Below, piece by piece: positions 1 through 61,576 of a DNA stretch of 64,000 nucleotides. Each line of letters opens with the position of its first letter. The stretch's first letter is position 1. The notes under the pieces are model-generated. The model worked only from the letters and a program-made list of their open reading frames with translations. It searched no databases and was not told the origin of the DNA. Both the position numbers and the translations under genes were made by a program. Source of the DNA: a virus (Duplodnaviria; Caudoviricetes); the IMG/VR virus record IMGVR_UViG_3300013308_000019, positions 1 through 64,000 of that record; one strand, written 5' to 3'.

Positions 1-89
1 TGTGCCTGTTCTTCGGTATAGCCGCCCCAGATTTCTTCTTGTTCTTCGAGAGAAAGTTCTGCGATTTCTTCCGCTATGGATTTTGACAT
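1..89 (-). CDS. Probable terminase large subunit, N-terminal fragment (runs off window)
   Basis: Reverse strand reads MSKSIAEEIAELSLEEQEEIWGGYTEEQA, resembling the helical N-terminus of actinophage large terminases. Only 29 codons are visible. Confidence 0.4.
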   Translation of the reverse strand, partial: MSKSIAEEIAELSLEEQEEIWGGYTEEQA

Positions 90-17999: not shown

Positions 18000-18251
18000 G
18001 TGAAGTATCTAGCAGGGTTCGTGTTGGGAGTGGCAATGGTTCTGGGAGTGGTGTCGTGTACACCCTCAGCACAGGCTGTCGATCCCAACCATGGGAACAA
18101 CAACCCCGGAATGTACCGGGACACGTGGCACAAGATGCCAGACGGGCGTACAGTGTACTGCCTGTACATCGAGGGACATCTGGGTGGCTACTCTCAGGGC
18201 AACACTCCTTCGTTCGAATGCGACTTCGATGGGGCTATGGTGCACAAGTGA
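18000..18251 (+). CDS. Small lipoprotein/secreted two-Cys protein
   Basis: Signal with VVSC; DGRTVYC...ECDF. Confidence 0.65.
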   Translation: MKYLAGFVLGVAMVLGVVSCTPSAQAVDPNHGNNNPGMYRDTWHKMPDGRTVYCLYIEGHLGGYSQGNTPSFECDFDGAMVHK

Positions 18252-20128: not shown

Positions 20129-20437
20129 GTGAGTAACTGGACGTACACCCCGGAACACTGGGACATCGGGACGGTGGAGGAACGTATCCACCGTCTTCGT
20201 CGTCTGGTGCTGGCGCACTCTGTGCTGTACTACAGCATGGGGGAGACGGCGGTGCCTGACGCGCAGTTCGATACGTGGGCGTATGAGCTTGTGGAGTTAC
20301 AAAAAACGCATCCTGAAGAATCGGAGCGTGTGTTGTATCATCGTGAGGCGTTCGCTGACTTCACCGGGGAGACAGGGTTTGACCTGCCCCTGACAGATGC
20401 AGGAGCGGTACGGGCGGCAGAGAGGATGAGACCATGA
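20129..20437 (+). CDS. Stand-alone NAD-dependent DNA ligase domain Ia-like protein
   Basis: RIHRLRR...HSVLYY...VPDAQFD...ELVELQKTHPE matches the LigA N-terminal Ia pattern; no KxDG adenylation motif. Confidence 0.75.
   Translation: MSNWTYTPEHWDIGTVEERIHRLRRLVLAHSVLYYSMGETAVPDAQFDTWAYELVELQKTHPEESERVLYHREAFADFTGETGFDLPLTDAGAVRAAERMRP
20297..20309 (+). repeat. Isolated copy of the 13-bp array motif inside a CDS
   Basis: TTACAAAAAACGC, exact consensus. Confidence 0.6.
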
Positions 20438-35416: not shown

Positions 35417-35953
35417 ATGAGAACGAAATGCGTACTTTGTAACTGCCGGATCAAAGACCGTGCCAACGCGGACCAGAAGACATGCTCTGCTGAATGCCGA
35501 GGTACGTACAAGTGGAAGACGCGTACGATGACCAAGCACCACGACCGGAGTACCTCCGGTCAGCGCCCCAGCTTCAAGCCTGAGGACTGGATCGACATCC
35601 TCAACAGGCATGGCAGGCGTTGTGCGTACTGCGGAACCAAGAAGGGGAAGATGACCATGGACCACGTCCTACCGCTCTCACGTGGCGGACGACACTGTGT
35701 CTCCAACGTTGTCCCCGCTTGCGGCCAGTGCAACAAGACGAAGGCCGACATGACTCTCATGGAGTGGAAGCGGAAGAAGCTCTACGACATGCGTCCGTGG
35801 ACGATGACTGTCAACGGAATCAAGATGAAGCGGCCCAAGGAAGGCAAGCTGTCGAGGACTCCCATCTTCCAGCAGATGATGCAGGAGATGGCTGACAGGG
35901 CGCTTCTGGAGAAGTACCCGCCTACAGTTGACTACATCGACATTCTAGTGTAG
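35417..35953 (+). CDS. HNH endonuclease
   Basis: CAYCG...TMDHVLPLSRGG.H..SNVVPACGQCN..K; N-terminal CxxC...CS..C. Confidence 0.9.
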   Translation: MRTKCVLCNCRIKDRANADQKTCSAECRGTYKWKTRTMTKHHDRSTSGQRPSFKPEDWIDILNRHGRRCAYCGTKKGKMTMDHVLPLSRGGRHCVSNVVPACGQCNKTKADMTLMEWKRKKLYDMRPWTMTVNGIKMKRPKEGKLSRTPIFQQMMQEMADRALLEKYPPTVDYIDILV

Positions 35954-37592: not shown

Positions 37593-37815
37593 GCGAGGTC
37601 ACCGAACCGGTCTTTGAGAAAGGGGACCGGGTCAAGATAGACACACCGAAGGAAACCTGCCACGGCAGGGTCGGCAAGGTGAGCCACTACACCGAGTCAG
37701 GAAAGCTGGTCTACGTGGAGACACCGACCGGACTGGTATGGGTGTATCCATGGGAGATATCCCACCACAAAGAACGTTAGTTACAAAAACCGCACAACAA
37801 GAAGGAGAATAGACA

Positions 37816-40374: not shown

Positions 40375-40971
40375 ATGGAATTTCCTTTTGATACACCACC
40401 ACCGCCCCCATTCTTAGACGAAGAGCCTAAGGTCAGCAAGTCCCTCAGTGCCGGTAAGACTTCACCGGCAGAGCAAGGACAAAACATCCCGATGGGATGG
40501 AAACCGACAGCCGCCGAACCCGTTGCCGTTGTCCGCTGTACCGGTACCGCTAGCACCACAGGCGAACAGTGCAAGCGCTGGTCCCTCCGTGGAACCAACG
40601 TCTGCTCTAAGCACGGCGGACAGTTGCCGACCGTTAGAGAGCATGCCGAGGCCGTTGTGGAGTCTGCACGCATGCGCCTCATGGGAATGGCTGACCAAGC
40701 CGTAGACGGACTGGAAGACCTCATTGCGGTAGGCACTGCACCGCAGATCAGGCTTGCCGCTATCAAGGAAGTTCTGGACCGCTCAGGCGTGAAGGGTGGA
40801 CCGGACCTGTCCGTAGAGGTTACGCACTCCGTATCATACAAAGACGAAATCTTCAACCGCCTCAAGGAAATCAAAGAGCGCAAAGAAGCCATGGAGAAAG
40901 AGAAAGCCGCCATGCTTGGAGAAGATATTGTCGATGCCGAGGTACTTGACGAACCCGAGGAAACCGAGTAA
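40375..40971 (+). CDS. HGG-motif Zn-finger protein; possible terminase small subunit
   Basis: RCTG...GEQCKR...G.NVCSKHGG followed by RLAAIKEVLDRSG. Confidence 0.6.
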   Translation: MEFPFDTPPPPPFLDEEPKVSKSLSAGKTSPAEQGQNIPMGWKPTAAEPVAVVRCTGTASTTGEQCKRWSLRGTNVCSKHGGQLPTVREHAEAVVESARMRLMGMADQAVDGLEDLIAVGTAPQIRLAAIKEVLDRSGVKGGPDLSVEVTHSVSYKDEIFNRLKEIKERKEAMEKEKAAMLGEDIVDAEVLDEPEETE

Positions 40972-41246: not shown

Positions 41247-41867
41247 ATGAACACATTCAATGAAGGCGACCGAGTCTCCCATCCCGTCTACGGGAAGGGT
41301 ATCGTAGACGACCCGTACTCCGGTACCGGCTACGCTACCGTCCTGTTCGAGAACGGTAACAAGGTGATGGCCGACACATCCCTGCTGACACCGGTAACCC
41401 CTGCCTCACGGTTCAAAGCAGGAGACCAAGTCCATCACGCCCACCACGGCTCCGCTACCGTAATCGCCGTGAATGAGGCCCTGAAGCTCGTGACCATCCA
41501 GCCGTTCGCATACCGTGCCGGTTGGACGACACAGGTCCATCCGATCAGCTTGACAATGGAGTCGAACGGTGGTAAGTTCAAGGTAGGCGACCGCGTCTCC
41601 CACAAGCTCCACCGTGACGGTACCGTGGAAGAGATTCAGGCCAACGGGTTGCACGTCGTGAACATCGGCGGTAACCGTGTCTACATGGCACTGGAACACC
41701 AGATCGAGCATGCGGTACCGGAACCGACCTACCACATCTGCATCGAAGAGATTACCGGTGCCGCTCATGTTCCCGGTAGCCTCACCGCTAAGGAAGTTGC
41801 CAACTACATCAACGATGGGGTAGACTGGCGAGTAGCCAAAGAGATCACCATCACCAAGGAAGGCTAA
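41247..41867 (+). CDS. Triple SH3/Tudor-like repeat protein
   Basis: Three F..GD.V.H..(Y/H)G.G.V repeats. Confidence 0.75.
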   Translation: MNTFNEGDRVSHPVYGKGIVDDPYSGTGYATVLFENGNKVMADTSLLTPVTPASRFKAGDQVHHAHHGSATVIAVNEALKLVTIQPFAYRAGWTTQVHPISLTMESNGGKFKVGDRVSHKLHRDGTVEEIQANGLHVVNIGGNRVYMALEHQIEHAVPEPTYHICIEEITGAAHVPGSLTAKEVANYINDGVDWRVAKEITITKEG

Positions 41868-44966: not shown

Positions 44967-45284
44967 ATGGCAAATCTCAAGTTCACCCCCCAGTCCCACG
45001 AAGACGCTGCTAAGGCTCTCGGATTCCGCGACAGCCTCGTGATCGGCCACAACACCGAACTCCGCCGTCTAGGGGACGGCTCCATCGTCGCCACGTACCA
45101 CGGCAACAGCATCGTACGGTACACCACCGAAGGCGTGTTCGCTACGTACGCCGGATGGGCCACGTCCACCACCACGAACCGCCTCAACCAGCTTGCACCG
45201 GCCCGGTTCAACATCAAGAACCGTCAGCCCCAGATCAACGGCAAGACGCTGGAAGACTGGTCCGAATGGGTGAAGGTCAGCTAG
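44967..45284 (+). CDS. Conserved phage hypothetical protein
   Basis: HNT...YHGN.IV...GW.T.TT.NRLN. Confidence 0.75.
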   Translation: MANLKFTPQSHEDAAKALGFRDSLVIGHNTELRRLGDGSIVATYHGNSIVRYTTEGVFATYAGWATSTTTNRLNQLAPARFNIKNRQPQINGKTLEDWSEWVKVS

Positions 45285-45878: not shown

Positions 45879-45965
45879 TTACAAAAAACGCTTACCGTGT
45901 CGAGTTGCCAACCGTGACTCGATGCGGTAAGCTTGTTTTATCAAGCCAACCGAAAGGGGAACACA

Positions 45966-48124: not shown

Positions 48125-48170
48125 GGGTCCTCTGGTTTCCCTGCCCCGCGTCTTTGCGGCTCCGCTTCAT
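48125..48170 (-). ncRNA. Candidate small RNA/minigene, family 1, copy A (core)
   Basis: ATGAAGC...GCAGGGAAACCAGAGGACCC. Confidence 0.5.
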
Positions 48171-48325
48171 AGCTTCATTCTTTCACAATTTCGATGCGGA
48201 TGCAAGTCTACAAGAAACGCGTTACAAGAAACGCATTGCGGTTAGAGTTTGCATCCGGTGGCCGTATGCCGTAGAGTAGAGCTATCGGGAACGACCGGTT
48301 CCCCCGAAGCCTTGGAGGTCTCATC

Positions 48326-48949
48326 ATGGGCGCACCCCGTATCGGTAACGTGCTGGACGTTCCGACTAAGCGTGTATATGCCGCTAACCCTAACTCGGCC
48401 CGTATCGTGGACGTGTGGCGGCAGGCTACCGTTTCCGAATTGGTAGAGGGTATGGAGTGGTACCGTGACGCTCACGCGCTCGCCGTGGAACTCTCCCCTA
48501 CTGATCCGGCGCAGGCCGCTGGCGTTATCGCCGCGCTGTCTCCCCTTATGTCATGGGGTCAGAATGTGGTGCTGGCAGTCCGCGCATATGCGGACGGTAA
48601 AGCATCCGGTGCACTCTTTAGCAACGTTGCTAAAGCCAACCGTATCCTCGCCGGTGAGCGTCCGGAGGATGTACTGGGCGGCGATAAAGTACGGGCGTTC
48701 TACGGTGCTATTGCTGATCCGGCATCGGATGCGGTTGTCGTTGACCGGCACGCGTTCGACATTGCCGTTGGCCGCGTGACTAACAACGAGTCGCGGCAGG
48801 CACTGGGCCGTAAGGGTGTGTACGATTCGTTCGCACGGGCCTACGTACGGGCCGCTAAGGCCATTTCAGCAGAGACTGGCATGGATGTATCGGCCAGTCA
48901 GGTACAGGCCGTTACGTGGACGGTATGGCGTAGGCTCAAGGGTCTGTAG
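48326..48949 (+). CDS. Conserved phage protein, HhH-GPD DNA-glycosylase-like
   Basis: WY..A...IAALSP..SW..N...G.KVRAFY...VVVDRHA...QAVTW. Confidence 0.55.
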   Translation: MGAPRIGNVLDVPTKRVYAANPNSARIVDVWRQATVSELVEGMEWYRDAHALAVELSPTDPAQAAGVIAALSPLMSWGQNVVLAVRAYADGKASGALFSNVAKANRILAGERPEDVLGGDKVRAFYGAIADPASDAVVVDRHAFDIAVGRVTNNESRQALGRKGVYDSFARAYVRAAKAISAETGMDVSASQVQAVTWTVWRRLKGL

Positions 48950-49404: not shown

Positions 49405-49493
49405 TTACAAAAACCGCATAGCGTCTAGGACTTGCGTCTTAGGCGCTATGCGGGTAAGCTAGTCATATCAGCCAAACCAAACAGGAGGACAAA

Positions 49494-50302: not shown

Positions 50303-50311
50303 AACTTACAA

Positions 50312-50346
50312 GAAACGCTTAGCCGAAAGGCTAGGCGTTTTTTGTT
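50312..50346 (+). terminator. Intrinsic terminator built onto a motif copy
   Basis: AAACGCTTAGCC-GAAA-GGCTAGGCGTTT followed by a T-tract. Confidence 0.75.
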
Positions 50347-50356
50347 GTTGCGGCCT

Positions 50357-50428
50357 AAAAAATAAGGCCAGACTCGGCCTTCCCCGCCACCCGTCTCAGG
50401 GCGGCTATCATGTTCGCCTTGCGGCTAT
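50357..50428 (-). ncRNA. Candidate small RNA, family 2, copy 2
   Basis: TTGCAT-17-TAAGCT promoter on the minus strand; TGATA-hairpin-GGGGAAG; terminator and U-tract. Confidence 0.55.
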
Positions 50429-50545
50429 AAAATAAGCTTACCACCTTGCGGATGCAGATGCAAGTCTACAAGAAACGCATTGGGACTTGCGGATGCGCTC
50501 GCATGCGTGTACGTTTAGGGTAACGGATCAACGAAAGGGAAGATC

Positions 50546-53193: not shown

Positions 53194-53364
53194 GTGAACT
53201 TCGAAGTCGGAACCAAAGTCGAAATCCTCGAACGCGGCGCATGGGTAGGCCCGTTCACCGTTACGGCAGACGCGGGACGCACGCCGGATCACGTAGTGCT
53301 TTACGGTCCCTCTGGCCGGTTCGAAGTCTACAACGACGCACCGTTCAACATCCGTAAAGCTTAG
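53194..53364 (+). CDS. SH3-like cassette protein
   Basis: FEVGTKV. Confidence 0.65.
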   Translation: MNFEVGTKVEILERGAWVGPFTVTADAGRTPDHVVLYGPSGRFEVYNDAPFNIRKA

Positions 53365-55119: not shown

Positions 55120-55326
55120 ATGAAGGTTTTCTTCGAAGCACTGGTCGATGGACAGTACGTCAACCAGAAGCGTCTGGCGGATATCCCGGATGAGAAAGCT
55201 TACGCTCGGGCGGCTAAGGCCTACCCGAATGATCCGGACTACGTGGAGCAGATGCTCGACGGACGCGGCTACATCTACATCAACGGCCACAACTGCCGGT
55301 TCACCTACCAACAGGACAGCCTCTAG
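55120..55326 (+). CDS. Hypothetical cassette protein
   Basis: Stop abuts motif. Confidence 0.7.
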   Translation: MKVFFEALVDGQYVNQKRLADIPDEKAYARAAKAYPNDPDYVEQMLDGRGYIYINGHNCRFTYQQDSL

Positions 55327-55429
55327 TTACAAGACACGCATAGGGCCTCTACGGAGGCCCTATTTGCGTTTGGGCGGAAAGGTGGTATCGTTGAGGTATC
55401 GGCAAGGGTTGCCGGTAGGAAAGGGAGTC

Positions 55430-55750
55430 ATGGAACTCAACGTCAAGTACAGCACCGCGAATCTGGAAGCAACCAAGGGTAGCGCGGACGCCTCACCCGG
55501 TGACCGCAACGCGGCACCCTACCTGCTGAAGCTGGACACCGTGGAGCGGCGTCTGCGGGCTGTAGGCGAGGCCCACACGCTCATGAACCTGCTGGGCTTC
55601 CGGTACTCTGAGGCTGTCTACAACGCCGTATCGGACCTGAGTAAGAACATTGCCGCTGGGCAGGAGGATAAGGCCCTCTACGGCGAGGCTATCGCTAAGC
55701 GGTACCGCGACGAAGAGAACGCACGCCGGAAGCTGGAACGCGGGTACTGA
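55430..55750 (+). CDS. Hypothetical protein, last gene of the plus arm
   Basis: GGGAG RBS; followed by motif and terminator. Confidence 0.7.
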   Translation: MELNVKYSTANLEATKGSADASPGDRNAAPYLLKLDTVERRLRAVGEAHTLMNLLGFRYSEAVYNAVSDLSKNIAAGQEDKALYGEAIAKRYRDEENARRKLERGY

Positions 55751-55763
55751 TACAAAAAACTCT

Positions 55764-55800
55764 TAGGCTCTCATCCTCCGGGATGGGAGCCTATTGTTTT
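55764..55800 (+). terminator. Terminator closing the plus arm
   Basis: TAGGCTCTCATCC-TCCG-GGATGGGAGCCTA followed by TTGTTTT. Confidence 0.75.
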
Positions 55801-55970
55801 GTGTCTGGGCGGGGCTGTGTGGGCCTCTACGGGGCTGTGAGGGATTGGGTGGCACTCTCACCCATGGCGGCGATTCTAGGGCCTTAGGCGGGCACGTAGG
55901 GCCTGCGGTAGGCCTGCGTAGCTGTGAGGCTCTGGGCGGCTGTCTGCGGGCCTAACTGGGCGCAGACGCA

Positions 55971-56001
55971 CAAAGACCCCCAACCTTTCGGTTGAGGGCC
56001 T
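55971..56001 (-). terminator. Terminator closing the minus arm
   Basis: Minus strand AGGCCCTCAACC-GAAA-GGTTGGGGGTCT-TTG. Confidence 0.7.
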
Positions 56002-56020
56002 CTGTGGGGCTGTGGAGGGC

Positions 56021-56287
56021 CTAGGCTTCGATGTCCTCGGGGCTGATGTCCATCACGTAGGCTTTGATGTTGACCTCGTCATCTGACTGGCCTGAGCGGT
56101 CCCAAGGGTTGATGCAGGGAACGTCTGCGGCTTCGATTTCCACCTGAAGGGAGCCGTCCGGGTTGGTGGCCGCGATATCGGTTACGGTCATCTCTTCGCC
56201 AGCTTCGAGGACTGCCGTCCATCCGCTGGAAAGGTTGATTTCAATGCGCCGGTTGAGCTTGATGGTCTGGCCGATTTCGATGAACAT
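56021..56287 (-). CDS. SH3-like hypothetical protein
   Basis: RBS GAAAGGG; IEIGQTIKL. Confidence 0.65.
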   Translation of the reverse strand: MFIEIGQTIKLNRRIEINLSSGWTAVLEAGEEMTVTDIAATNPDGSLQVEIEAADVPCINPWDRSGQSDDEVNIKAYVMDISPEDIEA

Positions 56288-56388
56288 GGTTCCCTTTCGT
56301 GGCCGGTGTTTCCGGCTCATGTAATGAGCTTACCGGACAAACAGAAAACGCGCAACCCCGAAGGGTTACGCGTTTTTTGTAAGTGGGG

Positions 56389-56589
56389 CTAGTCCTCATC
56401 CCAGACTTCGCCCGCGTAGTCGTCCTGTTCGGACGAGTTGCAGACTGGGCACTGATCCGTGCAGGAGGCCCAAGAGTAGATGTAGTACCACGAGCCGTCG
56501 AACTTGGAGCGGGTGGGGGAGACGATGCGCTGGTGGCCAGCGGCGTCGGTGTAGACCTTGTCGCCGGGGTATTCTGCGAAGGTTGACAT
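56389..56589 (-). CDS. Small Cys-containing cassette protein
   Basis: AAGGAG RBS; CTDQCPVC. Confidence 0.65.
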   Translation of the reverse strand: MSTFAEYPGDKVYTDAAGHQRIVSPTRSKFDGSWYYIYSWASCTDQCPVCNSSEQDDYAGEVWDED

Positions 56590-56698
56590 TGTTTTCTCCT
56601 TGTTTGGTTTGACCTTGTACCTACAGCTTAGCATGGTTTCGCGGGGCTTGTCTACTCGGGAGGCTGTGCGTTTTTTGTAAGGGTCCTAATTATTTTAG

Positions 56699-56732
56699 GG
56701 GTCCTCTGGTTTCCCAGCCATGTCCGCTTCAT
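56699..56732 (-). ncRNA. Candidate small RNA/minigene, family 1, copy B (core)
   Basis: TTGACA-17-TAGACT-6-ATGAAGC...GCTGGGAAACCAGAGGACCC. Confidence 0.55.
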
Positions 56733-56828
56733 GGTTTGAGTCTACGGGGTTTGAGGGTGAGTGTCAAGCCTGCGGCAGACACAAGAGAGAGGGGAGCCTC
56801 TCGGCTCCCCTCTAAGCGTTTCTTGTAG

Positions 56829-57002
56829 TTACCAGCGGTCCATCATGAAGGTGTGTCCGCCGAATCCTTGGATGACTCCGCAGATGACCATGACGATGGT
56901 TGCCACCACCAGCCCGCCCATGAAGGCCCATCCGATGATGCAAAAGAGAATCCAAGATGCGATATCGAGGAAACCTTTGATTCCGGTGTATGAAGACTTC
57001 AT
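56829..57002 (-). CDS. Small membrane protein
   Basis: MKSSYTG...hydrophobic...MMDRW; stop abuts motif. Confidence 0.6.
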   Translation of the reverse strand: MKSSYTGIKGFLDIASWILFCIIGWAFMGGLVVATIVMVICGVIQGFGGHTFMMDRW

Positions 57003-57103
57003 GGCCTGCTCCTAAGTTTGTATCGGCTTGTTCCGATGTATAGAGCTTAGCATAGGCTCCGAGTAGTTGTCTACCCGAAGCCTATGCGTTTTTTGTAGCT
57101 GTG

Positions 57104-57346
57104 CTAGCGGTCAAGCGGCACGCGCTCCAGCGAGCCAGTGCCGAAGTAGTCCACGTTGAGCAGGTACTCAGAGCCGTTCCAGCGAGCGCGTGCGCCGCTC
57201 CTGTAGCCATTGTCGAGCATGTGATCTGCGATAGCCTCGCTAGAGGCGTTCTCGATGGCGTAGGCCTTGCCACGGACCACGTAGCGGCTTCCAGCGGCTC
57301 CCCGTACCGTGCGCTGAGTCTGGTTCTTCTTGATGGTCTTTCCCAT
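57104..57346 (-). CDS. Hypothetical cassette protein
   Basis: AAGGAG RBS. Confidence 0.65.
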   Translation of the reverse strand: MGKTIKKNQTQRTVRGAAGSRYVVRGKAYAIENASSEAIADHMLDNGYRSGARARWNGSEYLLNVDYFGTGSLERVPLDR

Positions 57347-57435
57347 TGTCTTACTCCTTGTGTGCGTTTTTTGTATTGGAATTGCCATTAGTGGCATGCC
57401 CTACTAGGTAGCGTACCACCTAGTAGAGCAAACTG

Positions 57436-57702
57436 CTAATCGCGGGCTTCGTCGTCCGAGACTTGGAACATCCACGAATCGGTGTAGATGTTCCGGCGAA
57501 CTGTGATCTTGCCCTGAGCTACCAGCGATTCGAACGCCTCGCGGTAGTTCTTGAGGTTCGCGGGAGTCTCGCGGATGTTGTGCCACGCGAGCGTGCTTTC
57601 GACGGTACGCTCCACCATGATGTCCCGGTGAGTGGTGTGGGAGTCGTAGAATCCGTCGTTCCACTCGTTGATGTAGGTGAGGATGTTGTCTTCGCGGCTC
57701 AT
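57436..57702 (-). CDS. Hypothetical cassette protein (possible winged helix)
   Basis: REAFESLVAQGKI.VRR. Confidence 0.65.
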   Translation of the reverse strand: MSREDNILTYINEWNDGFYDSHTTHRDIMVERTVESTLAWHNIRETPANLKNYREAFESLVAQGKITVRRNIYTDSWMFQVSDDEARD

Positions 57703-57798
57703 GTCTTGCTCCTTGGCTTGTCTCGGCTTGTTCCGATATGGATAGCTTACGCTAGTCGGGAGAGTTATGCAACCCTCCCGACTAAGCGTTTTTTGTAG

Positions 57799-57990
57799 CT
57801 AGTCTTCGAGGTCTTCGATCTCTTCCACCTCTGCGGCTTGGAAACCATGCTCGTCTTCGAGTTCTTCGAGAGTGGTGTACCAGAACCCGCCGACCCCATC
57901 CGGAGTGATGAAGTACATGTCATCCTTGCGGACGTAGTACGCGGTATCGACGGTGAGTTCGGAACGGGGAGTGAGGGTTGCCTGTGCCAT
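57799..57990 (-). CDS. Acidic cassette protein
   Basis: Stop abuts motif. Confidence 0.7.
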   Translation of the reverse strand: MAQATLTPRSELTVDTAYYVRKDDMYFITPDGVGGFWYTTLEELEDEHGFQAAEVEEIEDLED

Positions 57991-58085
57991 TTTCTTTTCC
58001 TTTGTTTGGAGCGGCTTTGCTTATGTGTCTAGCTTAGCCTAGGTGGGAGAGTATTGCAACCCTCCCACCTAAGCGTGTTTTGTAA

Positions 58086-58340
58086 CTACGCTTTACCGTA
58101 GTGCCCACCGTCTGGCAGGTCACCACAGCAGGGGAAGAAGTGGATAGGCCACGCCTCATCCTCGCCACCCTCTGCGATGAAATCGGCGTTGTAGTCGAGC
58201 CACAGATCACGCTTGCTGTCGAAGTCGTCATCGAACCAGTCGTGACCCTTCTTGGCTTTGGGAACGTCTGCACAGTCTGCGCGGTGAACGCTCACGTCGT
58301 AGTCGTTGTTCCCATTGCCGTTGATGGTTACCAGTTTCAT
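58086..58340 (-). CDS. Conserved actinophage hypothetical protein
   Basis: VHRADCAD...FFPC. Confidence 0.7.
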   Translation of the reverse strand: MKLVTINGNGNNDYDVSVHRADCADVPKAKKGHDWFDDDFDSKRDLWLDYNADFIAEGGEDEAWPIHFFPCCGDLPDGGHYGKA

Positions 58341-58434
58341 GATGACTCCTTAGGTCTATCGGCTTGTTCCGATATGAATAGCTTACACGCAAAAGGCCCG
58401 AGAACCAAATCTCGGGCCTATGCGTTTTTTGTAG

Positions 58435-58869
58435 CTAGTTGACGTAGATGCTCACCTTGTTGGCAACATCCCAGACGGCCAGTTCCTCGCGCTCCTTAGC
58501 TACGAGCATTGCCGTCTCGTAGTCCTCGTACCACTCGGAGGCTTCAGCGTAGACAACACCGGACTCTACCCACGTGCCCATCAGCCCGAGGCCTTCAGTG
58601 GTCGCGTAAGCCATTCCCAGTGCGTACTGGTAGTCTCGGGTATCCGAGGCCTTCAGGTCGAACATGTGGGGCTTGTGGAGGCCTGCCACGTAGTAGCCGG
58701 TGGTGTGCGAGGCCATGGCCATGGTGGGGCTGGAAAGGTCGAGAGTGCATCCACCGTTGGCGGACGTCTCACGTGAGAGGGTGACGCCGCGAATCTGACC
58801 ATAGGTCCGGAGCTTCGGCGTGACGCCGGAGTTTTCGTTGCGCATGGTCTCTACTGTCTGAGCGGACAT
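58435..58869 (-). CDS. Paralog of 49045..49404
   Basis: GGCTLDL...HTTGYYVAG...GTW...EAS...ELAVWD. Confidence 0.7.
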   Translation of the reverse strand: MSAQTVETMRNENSGVTPKLRTYGQIRGVTLSRETSANGGCTLDLSSPTMAMASHTTGYYVAGLHKPHMFDLKASDTRDYQYALGMAYATTEGLGLMGTWVESGVVYAEASEWYEDYETAMLVAKEREELAVWDVANKVSIYVN

Positions 58870-59002
58870 TGGTTCCTCCTGAGTGGATCGGATGGTTTGA
58901 TATGAAGAGCATACCACTACTTTTGCGGATGATGCAAACTGCGCGGATGACGTGCGTTTTTTGTAAGTTGCGCGTGAGCGCGGATGCGTGTAAGCTGAGA
59001 GT

Positions 59003-59040
59003 ATGAAGCAACCGATTGAAGCTGGGTCACCGGAGGACCC
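59003..59040 (+). ncRNA. Candidate small RNA/minigene, family 1, copy D (core)
   Basis: TTGCGC-17-TAAGCT-6-ATGAAGC...GCTGGGTCACCGGAGGACCC. Confidence 0.5.
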
Positions 59041-59147
59041 ACAAAATAAGTGGGTCGGAAAGTAGGCATCACTCCATTCTCTCATAGTTTTTGGGTGGTT
59101 GTCAAGTGGGCTGAGGGCAAAAGAAAAGGCCCTTTCGGGCCTTCCCT

Positions 59148-59459
59148 TTAGAGTACTTCGTACTTGCCATTCGGCTGGCGGTACTTGATGTACGTGCAAC
59201 CGGCGTCGTACTGCGCCCATTCCAGCGGCTGGAATGCATCCTCGCTGTCCGCGTCACCGTAGAAGTAGCCGGTGAAGTAGCAGTTGTCGTCGTCGTCGTA
59301 GAGCTTGAAGTGGGTACCCTTACCGGCCTTGCCGTCGCGGATGCTGGCACGCTCTGCGTTGCTGGTGCCGTACACGCGGGGAGTTTCCAGCTTTTCCAGC
59401 TTTTCACCGAAGTTGGGGTTGCTGTCTTCGATTGCCGAGTGAGTGATCGTGAAACCCAT
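59148..59459 (-). CDS. Conserved phage hypothetical protein
   Basis: F.LYDDD...YF.G...PL.W...DAGCT.I.Y. Confidence 0.75.
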   Translation of the reverse strand: MGFTITHSAIEDSNPNFGEKLEKLETPRVYGTSNAERASIRDGKAGKGTHFKLYDDDDNCYFTGYFYGDADSEDAFQPLEWAQYDAGCTYIKYRQPNGKYEVL

Positions 59460-59579
59460 TGTGACTCCTAAGTCCGTTTCTCAAGCTCCCTGCTTGATGA
59501 CTCAAGCCTATCATCTATTCGGCAGATTGCAAACCCCAATTTCGCAATGCGTTTTTTGTAACCGGCCTGAAAGTAAAAG

Positions 59580-59613
59580 GGGTCCTCTGGTTTCCCTGCC
59601 TCCGGAGCTTCAT
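59580..59613 (-). ncRNA. Candidate small RNA/minigene, family 1, copy C (core)
   Basis: TTGCTT-17-TACCAT-6-ATGAAGC...GCAGGGAAACCAGAGGACCC. Confidence 0.55.
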
Positions 59614-59693
59614 AGTTCCATGGTACCGGCTTTGCCGGTGGGAAGCAAGTCCCTGAGGACAAAAGAATAGGACCCCTTTCGGGGTCCTATTCT

Positions 59694-59882
59694 CTAGTCT
59701 TCGTCGTCTCGCGGATCGTAGATTTCCCGCTGACGTTCGCGGATTTCGTAGAGTTCCTCGTCCCACTTGCCAACCAGTACGCGGTACCGTGCGGCCTGAT
59801 CGGAGGTCATCCGCTCGCCGTTATCTACCATGTCGTCAAACAGGGACAGTTCGCGGGCCTCTTCGGTGGTGAGCTTTGCCAT
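59694..59882 (-). CDS. Hypothetical cassette protein
   Basis: AGGAG RBS; followed by terminator hairpin. Confidence 0.7.
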   Translation of the reverse strand: MAKLTTEEARELSLFDDMVDNGERMTSDQAARYRVLVGKWDEELYEIRERQREIYDPRDDED

Positions 59883-59974
59883 GATGTTCTCCTAAGTCTC
59901 TCGGCTTGTTCCGATGTACTAAGACTACAGGCATAGGGGACAGGATGCAAGTCCTATCCCCTACGCGTTTTTTG

Positions 59975-60298
59975 TTACCGCTTACGGGTGAACACGTGCC
60001 ACGTGTGGGGCAGGTTCACGGATCGGATGACCACGGAACGCGGGCTGACCTGTGGCCGCTTGTGGTAGGTCCCTGTGTACCGATACGGGTTGCTGTAGGT
60101 GTAGCGGATGTCTACCGCGTCGAAGGACTCCCACGCGTCACCGATGCCCTTGTAAGAGCCTGTGCACTGTGTGCGGCCTGTGGTGTCACAGTCCCACGTC
60201 TGCGGCTTGTGAGTGGCCGCTGTGGCCGGTGAGAGCATACCGAGGGCGAGGGCGAGGGTTGCGGCGAGGGCGAGCAGGATGCGGGTAAGGTTTTTCAT
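59975..60298 (-). CDS. Secreted protein
   Basis: Signal peptide ending ATA-A; two Cys. Confidence 0.7.
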   Translation of the reverse strand: MKNLTRILLALAATLALALGMLSPATAATHKPQTWDCDTTGRTQCTGSYKGIGDAWESFDAVDIRYTYSNPYRYTGTYHKRPQVSPRSVVIRSVNLPHTWHVFTRKR

Positions 60299-60368
60299 GT
60301 GTCTCCTTTGGGTTGCGGGTATCCAACATATAAGACTCTAGGGCATGCGGTGCACGATTGCAAGCTGA

Positions 60369-60818
60369 CTATGCGGCGCACTCGGGGTAGCTCCACAGTT
60401 CCACAGATTCGAACTGATGCGCGTAGGCCTCAGCCTCACACTCGTTAGCTCCCATGGTGTGTGCAAGCTCGTGGAACAGGATGTGATTCCCCCACGCTGT
60501 ATAGGCAAGCTCAGGGGAGATAAGGACTGCATAGCGCCCATCATCCATAGGGACTGTGCAACCACCTTGGCCTACCTCTGAGAGTGTAGCGCCACAGTTG
60601 TCTTCATTCTGGAAGACGAACACCACGTTCTCAGGGTAGTCTACGCCACCATCTGCAAGGGCCTCACGTGCCCACAGTGAGGGCAGTTTGAATGGGGCGA
60701 GGGACAGGTAGTCTGAGTAGTTGGCAGACTCCCTAACAGGGGCTGTAGCAGGGGCTGACGTGGGCACTGGAGCGAGGATCGCTGACAGGCTGAGGATGAT
60801 GGTGAGGATGATGTTCAC
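60369..60818 (-). CDS. Secreted HExxH metallopeptidase-like protein
   Basis: Signal peptide; HILFHELAH...ECEAEAYA. Confidence 0.7.
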   Translation of the reverse strand: MNIILTIILSLSAILAPVPTSAPATAPVRESANYSDYLSLAPFKLPSLWAREALADGGVDYPENVVFVFQNEDNCGATLSEVGQGGCTVPMDDGRYAVLISPELAYTAWGNHILFHELAHTMGANECEAEAYAHQFESVELWSYPECAA

Positions 60819-61267
60819 TGTGTCTCCCTTGTGAATGACTGACTACGTCTATCCTCTCATGTGTTTGTCTCATGTGTCAACTTGAAATGCTCATGAGTTT
60901 ATACTGTGTTCAAACGCGCACGCCCGCACGCGCACGTGATTGTCCTCTAGTATTTTATTTTTGTCAAGCCATTTGGCGATGCGTTTTTTGTAGGCTCGCG
61001 TGGTCAATGCGTTTTTTGTAACGCGCTTGGGTGTGGGTTGTGTGGGATACGCGAAGCGTTTTTTGTAGTGTGGTTTGTGTGGGTTGTTGGGATGCGTTTT
61101 TTGTAAGGTGTAGGTTGTGTAGGTTGTATTGCTTTGTTTGATGCGGCATGATACAATCCTTGCGGATGCGGCTGTTTTTTGGAAACTTTTGGGGGTGGGG
61201 TCGCTGTACATACGGCTACCTGCTACTAAAAATAGGAAAAAATTACACTAATATACACAGTTAAGTG

Positions 61268-61576
61268 TTAACTAGCGTCCAGTACCGCCCGCACTACATC
61301 ATCCGTGCCCTGTACCACCCAGTACGTCTGTCCGTCTGTCGTGGTCACCTTTGTCCGGAAGTAGTCCTTGAATTGAGGCTCCCCATTAGGGAACTGAGCC
61401 GCCATAGCACCCTGTAGGCGTTCTACCTGATCAGGATTGGCCCTCCCGATATCCCGCTTCGCCTTGAGATGTGCGAGCGAATCTCGCTGGTACGATTCAT
61501 GATCCATCCCATAGCCCACCGTGACAACATGCCTCACCACGATATTTTTTCCATCTGGTGTCGATAACAACTTCAT
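61268..61576 (-). CDS. FlbD-like beta protein with insertion
   Basis: MKLLSTPDGKNI...TKVTTTDGQTY.V....DDV. Confidence 0.55.
   Translation of the reverse strand: MKLLSTPDGKNIVVRHVVTVGYGMDHESYQRDSLAHLKAKRDIGRANPDQVERLQGAMAAQFPNGEPQFKDYFRTKVTTTDGQTYWVVQGTDDVVRAVLDAS

Follow-up and report, generated by a model that had tools for sequence, protein, structure and literature searches.

The strand switch of a repeated 13-mer in an actinophage contig very probably marks the meeting point of two convergent gene arms

Why should a short repeated motif lie on one strand of a viral genome up to a certain point and on the other strand beyond it? The question is raised by the first 64 kb (64,000 nucleotides; hereafter the window, meaning the whole stretch analysed) of a 95,273-bp linear viral contig, IMG/VR record IMGVR_UViG_3300013308_000019. 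Here the copies of a 13-mer, GTTACAARAAACGC, lie on the plus strand to the left of an interval at 55.8-56.3 kb and on the minus strand to the right of it. A preliminary description offered two explanations. The motif may simply follow the main direction of transcription, or it may be a directional DNA signal, akin to KOPS, Chi or Ter sites, that points at the switch and serves translocation, injection, recombination or terminal-repeat processing. Our analysis argues strongly for the first of these: the switch is very probably the place where two convergent arms of early genes meet, and the motif the end of a cassette of stop codon, terminator and promoter. Since the cassette has a direction, given by the stop codon and the promoter in it, and the 13-mer is one of its fixed ends, the 13-mer would occur on the coding strand only.

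The window comes from a large actinophage that is kin to Arthrobacter phage Racecar. Its GC content is 55%, and CheckV rates the contig as 55% complete. The nearest cultured relatives are the Arthrobacter phages Racecar, Mimi and Talia1610 (each ~194 kb), while an uncultured relative, IMGVR_UViG_3300046615_000208 (171,752 bp, 99% complete; hereafter G001), is collinear with the contig at a nucleotide identity of ~75-90%. At the protein level, 0-30 kb of the contig corresponds to Racecar 144-171 kb, 40.5-70.8 kb to the genes of the Racecar terminal repeat, and 78-95 kb to Racecar 24-44 kb, portal gene included. The genes predicted over 0.4-55.75 kb are plus-strand and those over 56.0-68.0 kb minus-strand, with more blocks beyond. 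Those within 35.3-61.1 kb are small, at 40-200 aa.

The switch is real. The commonest long words of the window are variants of GTTACAARAAACG, and a search of the window for GTTACAARAAACGC with up to 2 mismatches finds it 58 times, where dinucleotide-preserving shuffles give an expectation of 0.61 (the largest shuffle count was 4). These include 42 plus-strand matches at 20,296-55,749 and 15 minus-strand matches at 56,370-61,107. Alignment of the copies shows the 13-mer to be the core of a 20-mer, tAGTTACAARAAACGCWTAG. A weight matrix of 20 columns, run over the whole contig with a threshold of 12 bits, returns 43 plus copies and the same 15 minus copies in the window, and essentially no copies over 61.2-95.3 kb. 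Adding a degenerate copy at 48,207 yields the 44 plus copies of the preliminary description, whose tally of 44 and 15 and whose switch interval are thus borne out. Of its bounding coordinates, 55,327 belongs to the last plus copy but one and 56,382 to the first minus copy; the final plus copy occupies 55,749-55,761. From ~42.9 kb on, nearly every ~90-bp gap between small plus-strand genes holds one copy, and to the left of this point one copy is common to several genes.

How strict is the polarity? Within the window it holds save for two weak opposite-strand matches, 35,443(-) at 16.5 bits and 50,348(-) at 14.8 bits, both within the best-hit range of shuffled sequence (highest single maximum 16.9 bits). 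The former, spanning 35,430-35,443, is the only minus-strand match left of the switch in the search for GTTACAARAAACGC, and the latter is the U-tract side of a bidirectional terminator. In the lineage at large strict polarity fails, as G001 has a strong inverted copy that we describe below. One further copy stands apart: a perfect match at 20,296-20,309 (+), inside an open reading frame (ORF) at 20,129-20,437, is 15 kb left of the block and outside the plus arm, and it is kept in G001 at 65,360.

The position of the copies relative to genes is highly regular. All 56 copies of at least 17 bits are on the same strand as their genes, and 48 of them are not wholly within a predicted coding sequence. 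In 27 of the 56 the upstream stop codon ends at motif position 0, and the next start codon follows a median of 96 nt downstream of the motif. Because the stop codon belongs to the 20-mer, the block is biased toward TAG, which ends 46 of its 67 predicted genes (35.3-61.2 kb) compared with 39 of 152 elsewhere in the contig. Four copies said to lie inside coding sequences (43,880; 46,795; 50,773; 50,892) do exist, and all of these except 50,892 are in the last 25-55 nt of a gene, before the next promoter.

Downstream of the motif, 42 of the 56 copies are followed by T[TA]GNNN, 16-18 nt and TANNNT, which are sigma-70/sigma-A-like hexamers by sequence match only. The -35 hexamer (TTGACA, TTGCAT) lies 27-28 nt after motif position 0. 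The motif ends 13-15 nt upstream of the hexamer, and the A-tract of the 13-mer is at about -59 to -51. A 17-nt spacer leads to a -10 box (TAAGCT, also as GTAAGCT; TAGTCT; TATACT), which is followed by a conserved leader (TATCAGCCAAAC or ATCGGAACAA) and then by a ribosome-binding site ahead of the next small ORF. A leader box (TATCAGCCAAAC or ATCGGAACAAnC) can be seen ~10-25 nt past the -10 box, e.g. at 45,935-45,950 and 49,455-49,470; at the equivalent place Racecar has ACTACCAAC.

The -35 hexamer is carried in the loop of a hairpin of 10-18 bp. The 5' arm of this hairpin begins within CGCWTAG, at the end of the 20-mer, or just past it, the 3' arm coincides with the promoter spacer, and the mean folding energy is about -21 kcal/mol. 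Folding both strands of each cassette reveals a clear bias: the sense RNA hairpin is the stabler in 38 of 42 cassettes here, in 32 of 36 in G001 and in 20 of 22 in Racecar, and G-U pairs on the sense and antisense strands number 71 and 21, 54 and 26, and 48 and 6, respectively. The hairpin is selected as a sense-strand RNA. It is therefore part of the upstream gene's transcript, which it would terminate or stabilise at the 3' end, while the same DNA would also form the core of the next promoter. This per-cassette folding replaced column-wise covariation on ungapped cassette alignments, which failed because loop lengths vary among cassettes. DNA hairpin promoters of the N4 type are ruled out by the long stems, the -35 hexamers in loops, the -10 box that follows and the selection on RNA that is evident from the G-U bias.

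Some matches to the promoter family have no motif (4,825; 28,669; 51,150; 84,909; and the counter-oriented 50,463(-) and 58,968(+)). If these are real promoters, then promoters of this type can do without the motif. The earlier remark that copies beside counter-oriented promoters keep the orientation of their arm is upheld at 50,463(-) and 58,968(+), and by eye only at ~48,195(-). At these places (50,305-50,470; 58,954-58,995; ~48,165-48,205) promoter-like sites on the counter strand stand back to back with arm-oriented copies and may give rise to small RNAs. The 50,463(-) site, for example, would yield a ~100-nt RNA ending at the bidirectional terminator at 50,310-50,348.

Is the orientation tied to genes or to a fixed centre? 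Racecar has an exact 20,468-bp direct terminal repeat, with physical ends at 1 and 20,468. Its cognate motif, TAGTTACAAAAnTTGMATAG, occurs in cassettes of the same architecture; each repeat holds 35 copies, and the unique part, of 153 kb, has 3. Plus copies extend over 0.9-17.3 kb, most of them among annotated genes 6-41 (+) and the three weakest left of gene 5; minus copies at 18.1-20.3 kb are among genes 42-45 (-); and at 20,351, just before gene 46 (+), the motif is on the plus strand again. The orientation thus flips twice, both times with the annotated gene strand, and the second flip, from 20,273(-) to 20,351(+), takes place within 78 bp at the divergent genes 45/46. The convergence point, at ~18.0 kb, is 2.4 kb inside the repeat and not at its end. 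In G001 the copies are confined to 80.7-107.5 kb of 172 kb and form the same two arms as here. One strong copy there (28 bits, 97,043-97,056) is inverted between two plus-strand genes; a TAA stop immediately precedes it, and a hairpin and promoter of the plus strand come immediately after it. Position in an arm therefore does not dictate orientation. We conclude that the idea that the motif follows the direction of transcription was right: strong copies are on the gene strand with the TAG stop included, they keep a fixed distance to the next promoter, and the second flip in Racecar behaves in the same way. Taken together, the findings in Racecar and G001 are of the kind that the preliminary description had itself named as a refutation of its directional signal.

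At the switch itself the two arms approach each other to within a G-rich spacer. The plus-arm terminator (55,764-55,793, followed by its U-tract) folds at -33.3 kcal/mol (z = -8.1, over 55,745-55,810, flanks included) and the minus-arm terminator at -34.1 kcal/mol (z = -4.9, over 55,960-56,022, flanks included). The spacer is ~84% identical in G001, where an unrelated gene takes the place of the last minus-arm gene. A search of the spacer for a small ORF found only short, unconvincing ones, and a structured RNA was rejected, as the fold of the spacer (z = -3.6) is owed mainly to the two terminators. AT skew flips at the centre, as a change of coding strand would lead one to expect, and GC skew is unchanged. 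A replication or terminus signal at the centre was likewise rejected, as GC skew changes at ~34 and 61-62 kb and not at the centre. Motifs of the G-quadruplex type number 3 in the 95 kb of the contig, one of them at the centre, and 5 in 174 kb of Racecar, again with one at the centre (18,008-18,027 (+)); the centre of G001 has none.

We propose the following model. The region 35.3-61.1 kb would be an array of small, functionally uncharacterised early genes. Many of these, and nearly all from ~42.9 kb, would form transcription units of their own. Neighbouring units would be parted by a ~100-bp cassette, which in order comprises the 20-mer with its TAG stop, a hairpin with the -35 hexamer as loop and its 3' arm as spacer, the -10 box, the leader, the ribosome-binding site and the ORF. 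The hairpin would end the upstream RNA or stabilise its 3' end, and its loop would serve the following promoter as its -35. Transcription of the plus arm (20 kb) and of the minus arm (5 kb) would run toward each other and would meet at two convergent terminators, the G-rich spacer and the last minus-strand gene. We infer that expression is early and uses the host sigma-A polymerase.

Where is this block in the genome? The motif block and the genes out to 70.8 kb lie opposite the Racecar repeat by synteny. For this reason the block is probably the long direct terminal repeat of the phage, collapsed in assembly, with the switch inside it and not at its end. The shifts of composition at ~34 and 61-62 kb fit such a collapsed repeat. 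The earlier guess of a link with terminal repeats has something real in it, in that the motif block of Racecar is its direct terminal repeat; this concerns the block as a whole and not the switch point. A search of the contig for homology to the boundaries of the Racecar repeat matched only a homologue of gene 1, at 40,437-40,575. A candidate for the right edge is the ~450-bp non-coding stretch at 60,820-61,300 (minus strand), where GC skew changes sign near 61-62 kb. Its CA-rich repeats (ACAACCCACAC-like) carry the four tandem copies of the motif, and it also has two promoter-like sites of sigma-70-like type and a run of GCGTGCGCGTG that is also found upstream of the first minus-arm gene of Racecar.

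Several points weigh against the model of convergent arms. The gene calls come from a home-made, self-trained codon-usage gene finder, and early expression, promoter use, termination and terminal-repeat status are all things that we infer for this contig. The cassette does not fix orientation absolutely, since the G001 copy at 97,056 runs counter to its genes and promoter. The copies at 37,780, 42,029, 42,322 and 57,377, which are followed by a ribosome-binding site only, and the four tandem copies upstream of the first minus-arm promoter have neither hairpin nor promoter, and the 13-mer must therefore have some role of its own. In addition, the copies at 50,305 and 55,749 are followed by a terminator only, and ~10 copies lack any hairpin. 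Finally, convergent termination alone does not account for the G-rich 22-nt repeats and the G-quadruplex-type motif. These may be incidental, and this spacer is the only feature that leaves open a role of the centre beyond termination. The coordinates of the arms, of the switch and of neighbouring genes are collected in Table 1.

Table 1. Features of the motif block, the strand switch and the neighbouring genes.
Feature	Coordinates	Strand	Basis
Plus arm, ~43 copies of the 20-mer	35354-55768	+	weight matrix, gene finder
Second-last plus copy; its TAG ends gene 55,120-55,326; followed by hairpin 55,340-55,363	55326-55345	+	
Last plus-arm gene, 106 aa, no credible family	55430-55750	+	gene finder, family searches
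Last plus copy, GATACAAAAAACT (20.8 bits); what follows is a terminator alone, without promoter	55749-55768	+	
Plus-arm putative intrinsic terminator: 13-bp stem, 4-nt loop, U-rich tail	55764-55805	+	folding
Non-coding, G-rich spacer in which a 22-nt repeat (TGTGGGCCTCTACGGGGCTGTG-like) occurs four times	55798-56014	+	
G-quadruplex-type motif in the spacer	55807-55834	+	
Minus-arm putative intrinsic terminator: GAAA-loop hairpin, then UCUUUGUG	55974-56006	-	folding
Last minus-arm gene, 88 aa (99 aa if the start is at 56,320)	56021-56287	-	gene finder
Promoter-like site of the last minus-arm gene: -35 TTGCGC, 17-nt spacer, -10 TAAGCT	56327-56355	-	
First minus copy (13-mer 56,371-56,383), with terminator hairpin 56,376-56,345	56366-56385	-	
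Minus arm, 15 copies among small minus-strand genes	56366-61109	-	matrix, mismatch search
Four tandem copies, spacings 28, 47 and 38 bp, in CA-rich repeats, gene-free	60981-61107	-	matrix
HNH endonuclease, directly after the first motif copy	35528-35953	+	Pfam
DUF7178 protein	48326-48949	+	Pfam
DndB-like protein	L053 4324-5745	+	Pfam
Macro-domain protein	L053 14262-14714	+	Pfam

The proteins encoded near the centre belong to no credible family, and an Rfam scan of 34-64 kb with E-values up to 1 found no RNA family. To be without a recognisable family is the usual state of early host-takeover genes. Few proteins of the block and its flanks have Pfam families, namely the HNH endonuclease, DUF7178, DndB-like and Macro-domain proteins; the Racecar homologue of the DndB-like protein is annotated as a ParB-like nuclease and has the opposite orientation. 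A 206-aa protein of the early block (41,247-41,867, plus strand) matches Pfam CarD_TRCF_RID at 28.6 bits against a cut-off of 23, and also the PcrA/UvrD and RapA Tudor domains. As these folds interact with RNA polymerase, the protein is a candidate phage factor acting on the host RNA polymerase.

What, then, does the 13-mer itself do? Our leading suggestion, which we hold tentatively, is that a sequence-specific protein may recognise it as an asymmetric DNA site and so act on all of the cassettes together. Such a site could be an upstream promoter element or a stoperator-like switch. We favour a DNA-binding reader because the 20-mer is nearly invariant beside freely diverging hairpin arms, because some copies have no hairpin or promoter, because four copies stand in tandem, and because the 3' half of the motif has changed as a block relative to Racecar with the 5' half kept. 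A helix-turn-helix-like protein at 84,579-84,866, the only one examined and with no systematic protein scan, has sub-threshold Pfam hits. The notion of a T4-like ADP-ribosylation of the polymerase acting on an UP-like element is unsupported; the annotated ADP-ribosyltransferase of Racecar has a Macro-domain protein as its homologue here. Next in likelihood, and possible, is that the 13-mer belongs to the terminator, as its A-tract or as an element of the 3' untranslated region.

Could the motif instead have no biochemical reader at all? It might be a patch of homology by which cassettes are swapped, deleted or duplicated, with the uniform orientation arising from tandem duplication. We regard this as unlikely. 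There are signs of shuffling: 24 of the 44 ends of homology blocks shared with G001 fall within cassettes, against 20% expected (p = 5e-7), with the caveat that conserved islands tend to end BLAST blocks anyway. Some cassette indels are flanked by two copies that align to one in the other genome. For example, the copies at 45,284 and 46,280 both align to a single G001 copy at 91,004, with the two intervening genes missing from G001, and the single copy at 53,364 aligns to two G001 copies, 99,442 and 99,726, with an extra gene between them. Apparent breakpoints at cassettes are the signature described for the promoter-early stem-loop (PeSL) cassettes of T4-like phages, which are thought to work as homology patches (PMC2839356, PMC4122927). 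That said, hairpin arms diverge freely and the 20-mer does not, which suggests direct selection on the sequence of the 20-mer; its 5' half is kept as far as Racecar with the 3' half changed as a block; and the four tandem copies have no genes between them.

Still less probable, in our judgement, is that the conserved element is its own reverse complement, CGTTTYTTGTAAC, the U-tract of a terminator that halts antisense transcription, so that the cassettes would be polar antisense barriers. In most cassettes the stem comes directly after the A-tract, and the opposite strand therefore reads as a stem followed by UUUUUUGU. At 50,305-50,348, moreover, the motif is one side of a symmetrical bidirectional terminator downstream of the promoter-like site at 50,463(-). 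However, the hairpins are clearly weaker as antisense RNA, their G-U pairs being on the sense strand. The Racecar counterpart, GTTACAAAA, is 5-8 nt off the stem and has only four A, the ~10 copies without a hairpin are left without a stem, and a U-tract does not need the invariant GTTAC and CGC flanks.

Very unlikely is a role of the junction in the entry of DNA, in which the convergence would be a functional boundary and the 20-mer the handle of one protein that switches all cassettes. If this were true, the end of the repeat would be drawn in while ~44 inward-pointing host-type promoters are transcribed, and entry or transcription would pause at the spacer with its G-rich repeats and G-quadruplex-type motif. 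Phage T5 has a comparable first-step-transfer stop in its terminal repeat.

Last, it is extremely improbable that the 13-mer is a KOPS/Chi/Ter-like signal that points a translocase, recombinase, packaging motor or injection machinery at 55.8-56.3 kb: the perfect strand separation across 59 copies, the unusual G-rich spacer with a G-quadruplex-type motif that recurs at the centre of Racecar, and the coincidence of the Racecar motif block with its terminal repeat might suggest as much, but the copies are confined to 26 kb of a ~172-kb genome, sit at gene boundaries and mostly in a fixed register with stop codons and promoters, turn again with the genes in Racecar, where the centre coincides with neither physical end, include an inverted copy inside the plus arm of G001, and converge on a point where AT skew but not GC skew changes.

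We thus return to the two convergent arms of early genes. On this explanation the polarity switch is ordinary, and no new DNA-compass signal is needed. The cassette itself is an unusual design, with stop codon, 20-mer, terminator hairpin and promoter fused in ~60 near-identical units. The design is kept, with the 3' half of the motif changed, in a cultured Arthrobacter phage, where it fills a 20-kb terminal repeat. The cassettes are candidate actinobacterial early promoters and terminators, and they offer a means of spotting collapsed terminal repeats of such phages in metagenome assemblies.

How does this compare with known systems? KOPS, Chi and Ter sites are spread across whole replichores, genes included; they switch at dif or the terminus regardless of gene strand and are read by DNA motors or Tus. 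The present motif shares with them a short asymmetric sequence and a strand switch at a defined point. It differs in that, apart from the copy at 20,296, it is found only at 35.3-61.1 kb of a 95-kb contig, mostly not wholly within genes, and tracks the gene strand.

A second comparison is with early gene blocks in the long terminal repeats of large lytic phages, such as the terminal redundancy of SPO1 and the pre-early region of T5. In the Kayvirus phage K, transcripts of the long terminal repeat are the first detected after infection (PMC9241854). The likeness consists of small, functionally uncharacterised genes under strong host-type promoters of their own, which here are predicted. In those phages the genes occupy a terminal repeat of 10-20 kb; in Racecar the cognate motif block coincides with the 20,468-bp repeat, and in the present contig such a location is probable. 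We know of no report from SPO1, T5 or Kayvirus that describes a 20-mer tied to a stop codon, or a promoter whose -35 is carried in the loop of a terminator.

The stoperators of cluster A mycobacteriophages such as L5, Bxb1 and TipsytheTRex (PMC9283540, PMC6550527) offer a formal parallel. They too are 13-mers of asymmetric sequence that recur many times in short intergenic spaces. Their orientation strikingly follows transcription and switches between genome arms (PMC9283540), and their consensus differs among related phages. Stoperators are bound by the monomeric immunity repressor of temperate phages, which has a helix-turn-helix and a stoperator domain. They are found genome-wide, with operator copies over the early promoter, whereas the sites described here are in one 26-kb block, where they are joined to stop codons and hairpins and precede the -35 by ~14 nt.

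Of the known systems, the nearest analogue is the PeSL of T4-like phages, in which terminator and promoter are likewise combined in one cassette (Arbiol et al. 2010, PMC2839356; Comeau et al. 2014, PMC4122927). In both cases a short cassette, repeated between genes, has a host-type -35 and -10, an A/T-rich stretch upstream of the -35 and a stem-loop that ends, or here would end, upstream transcription. Both flank small orphan genes in a plastic region, are co-oriented with those genes, and mark the breaks of indels and replacements between close relatives. There is no sequence relationship between them, and the host here is an actinobacterium. The order of parts differs as well: in the PeSL the stem-loop is followed by the AT-rich region and the promoter, while here the A-rich 20-mer is followed by the hairpin, with the -35 in its loop, and the -10. 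The A-rich element is here a nearly invariant 20-mer that includes the upstream stop codon, and the block is probably in a long terminal repeat. Promoter and terminator activity and mini-circles have been demonstrated for PeSLs; in the present cassette promoter and terminator are predicted from sequence. By its sequence and its order of parts the cassette is an analogue of the PeSL and not a homologue, and it provides an independent case, beyond the T4-like phages, of cassette-mediated gene shuffling.

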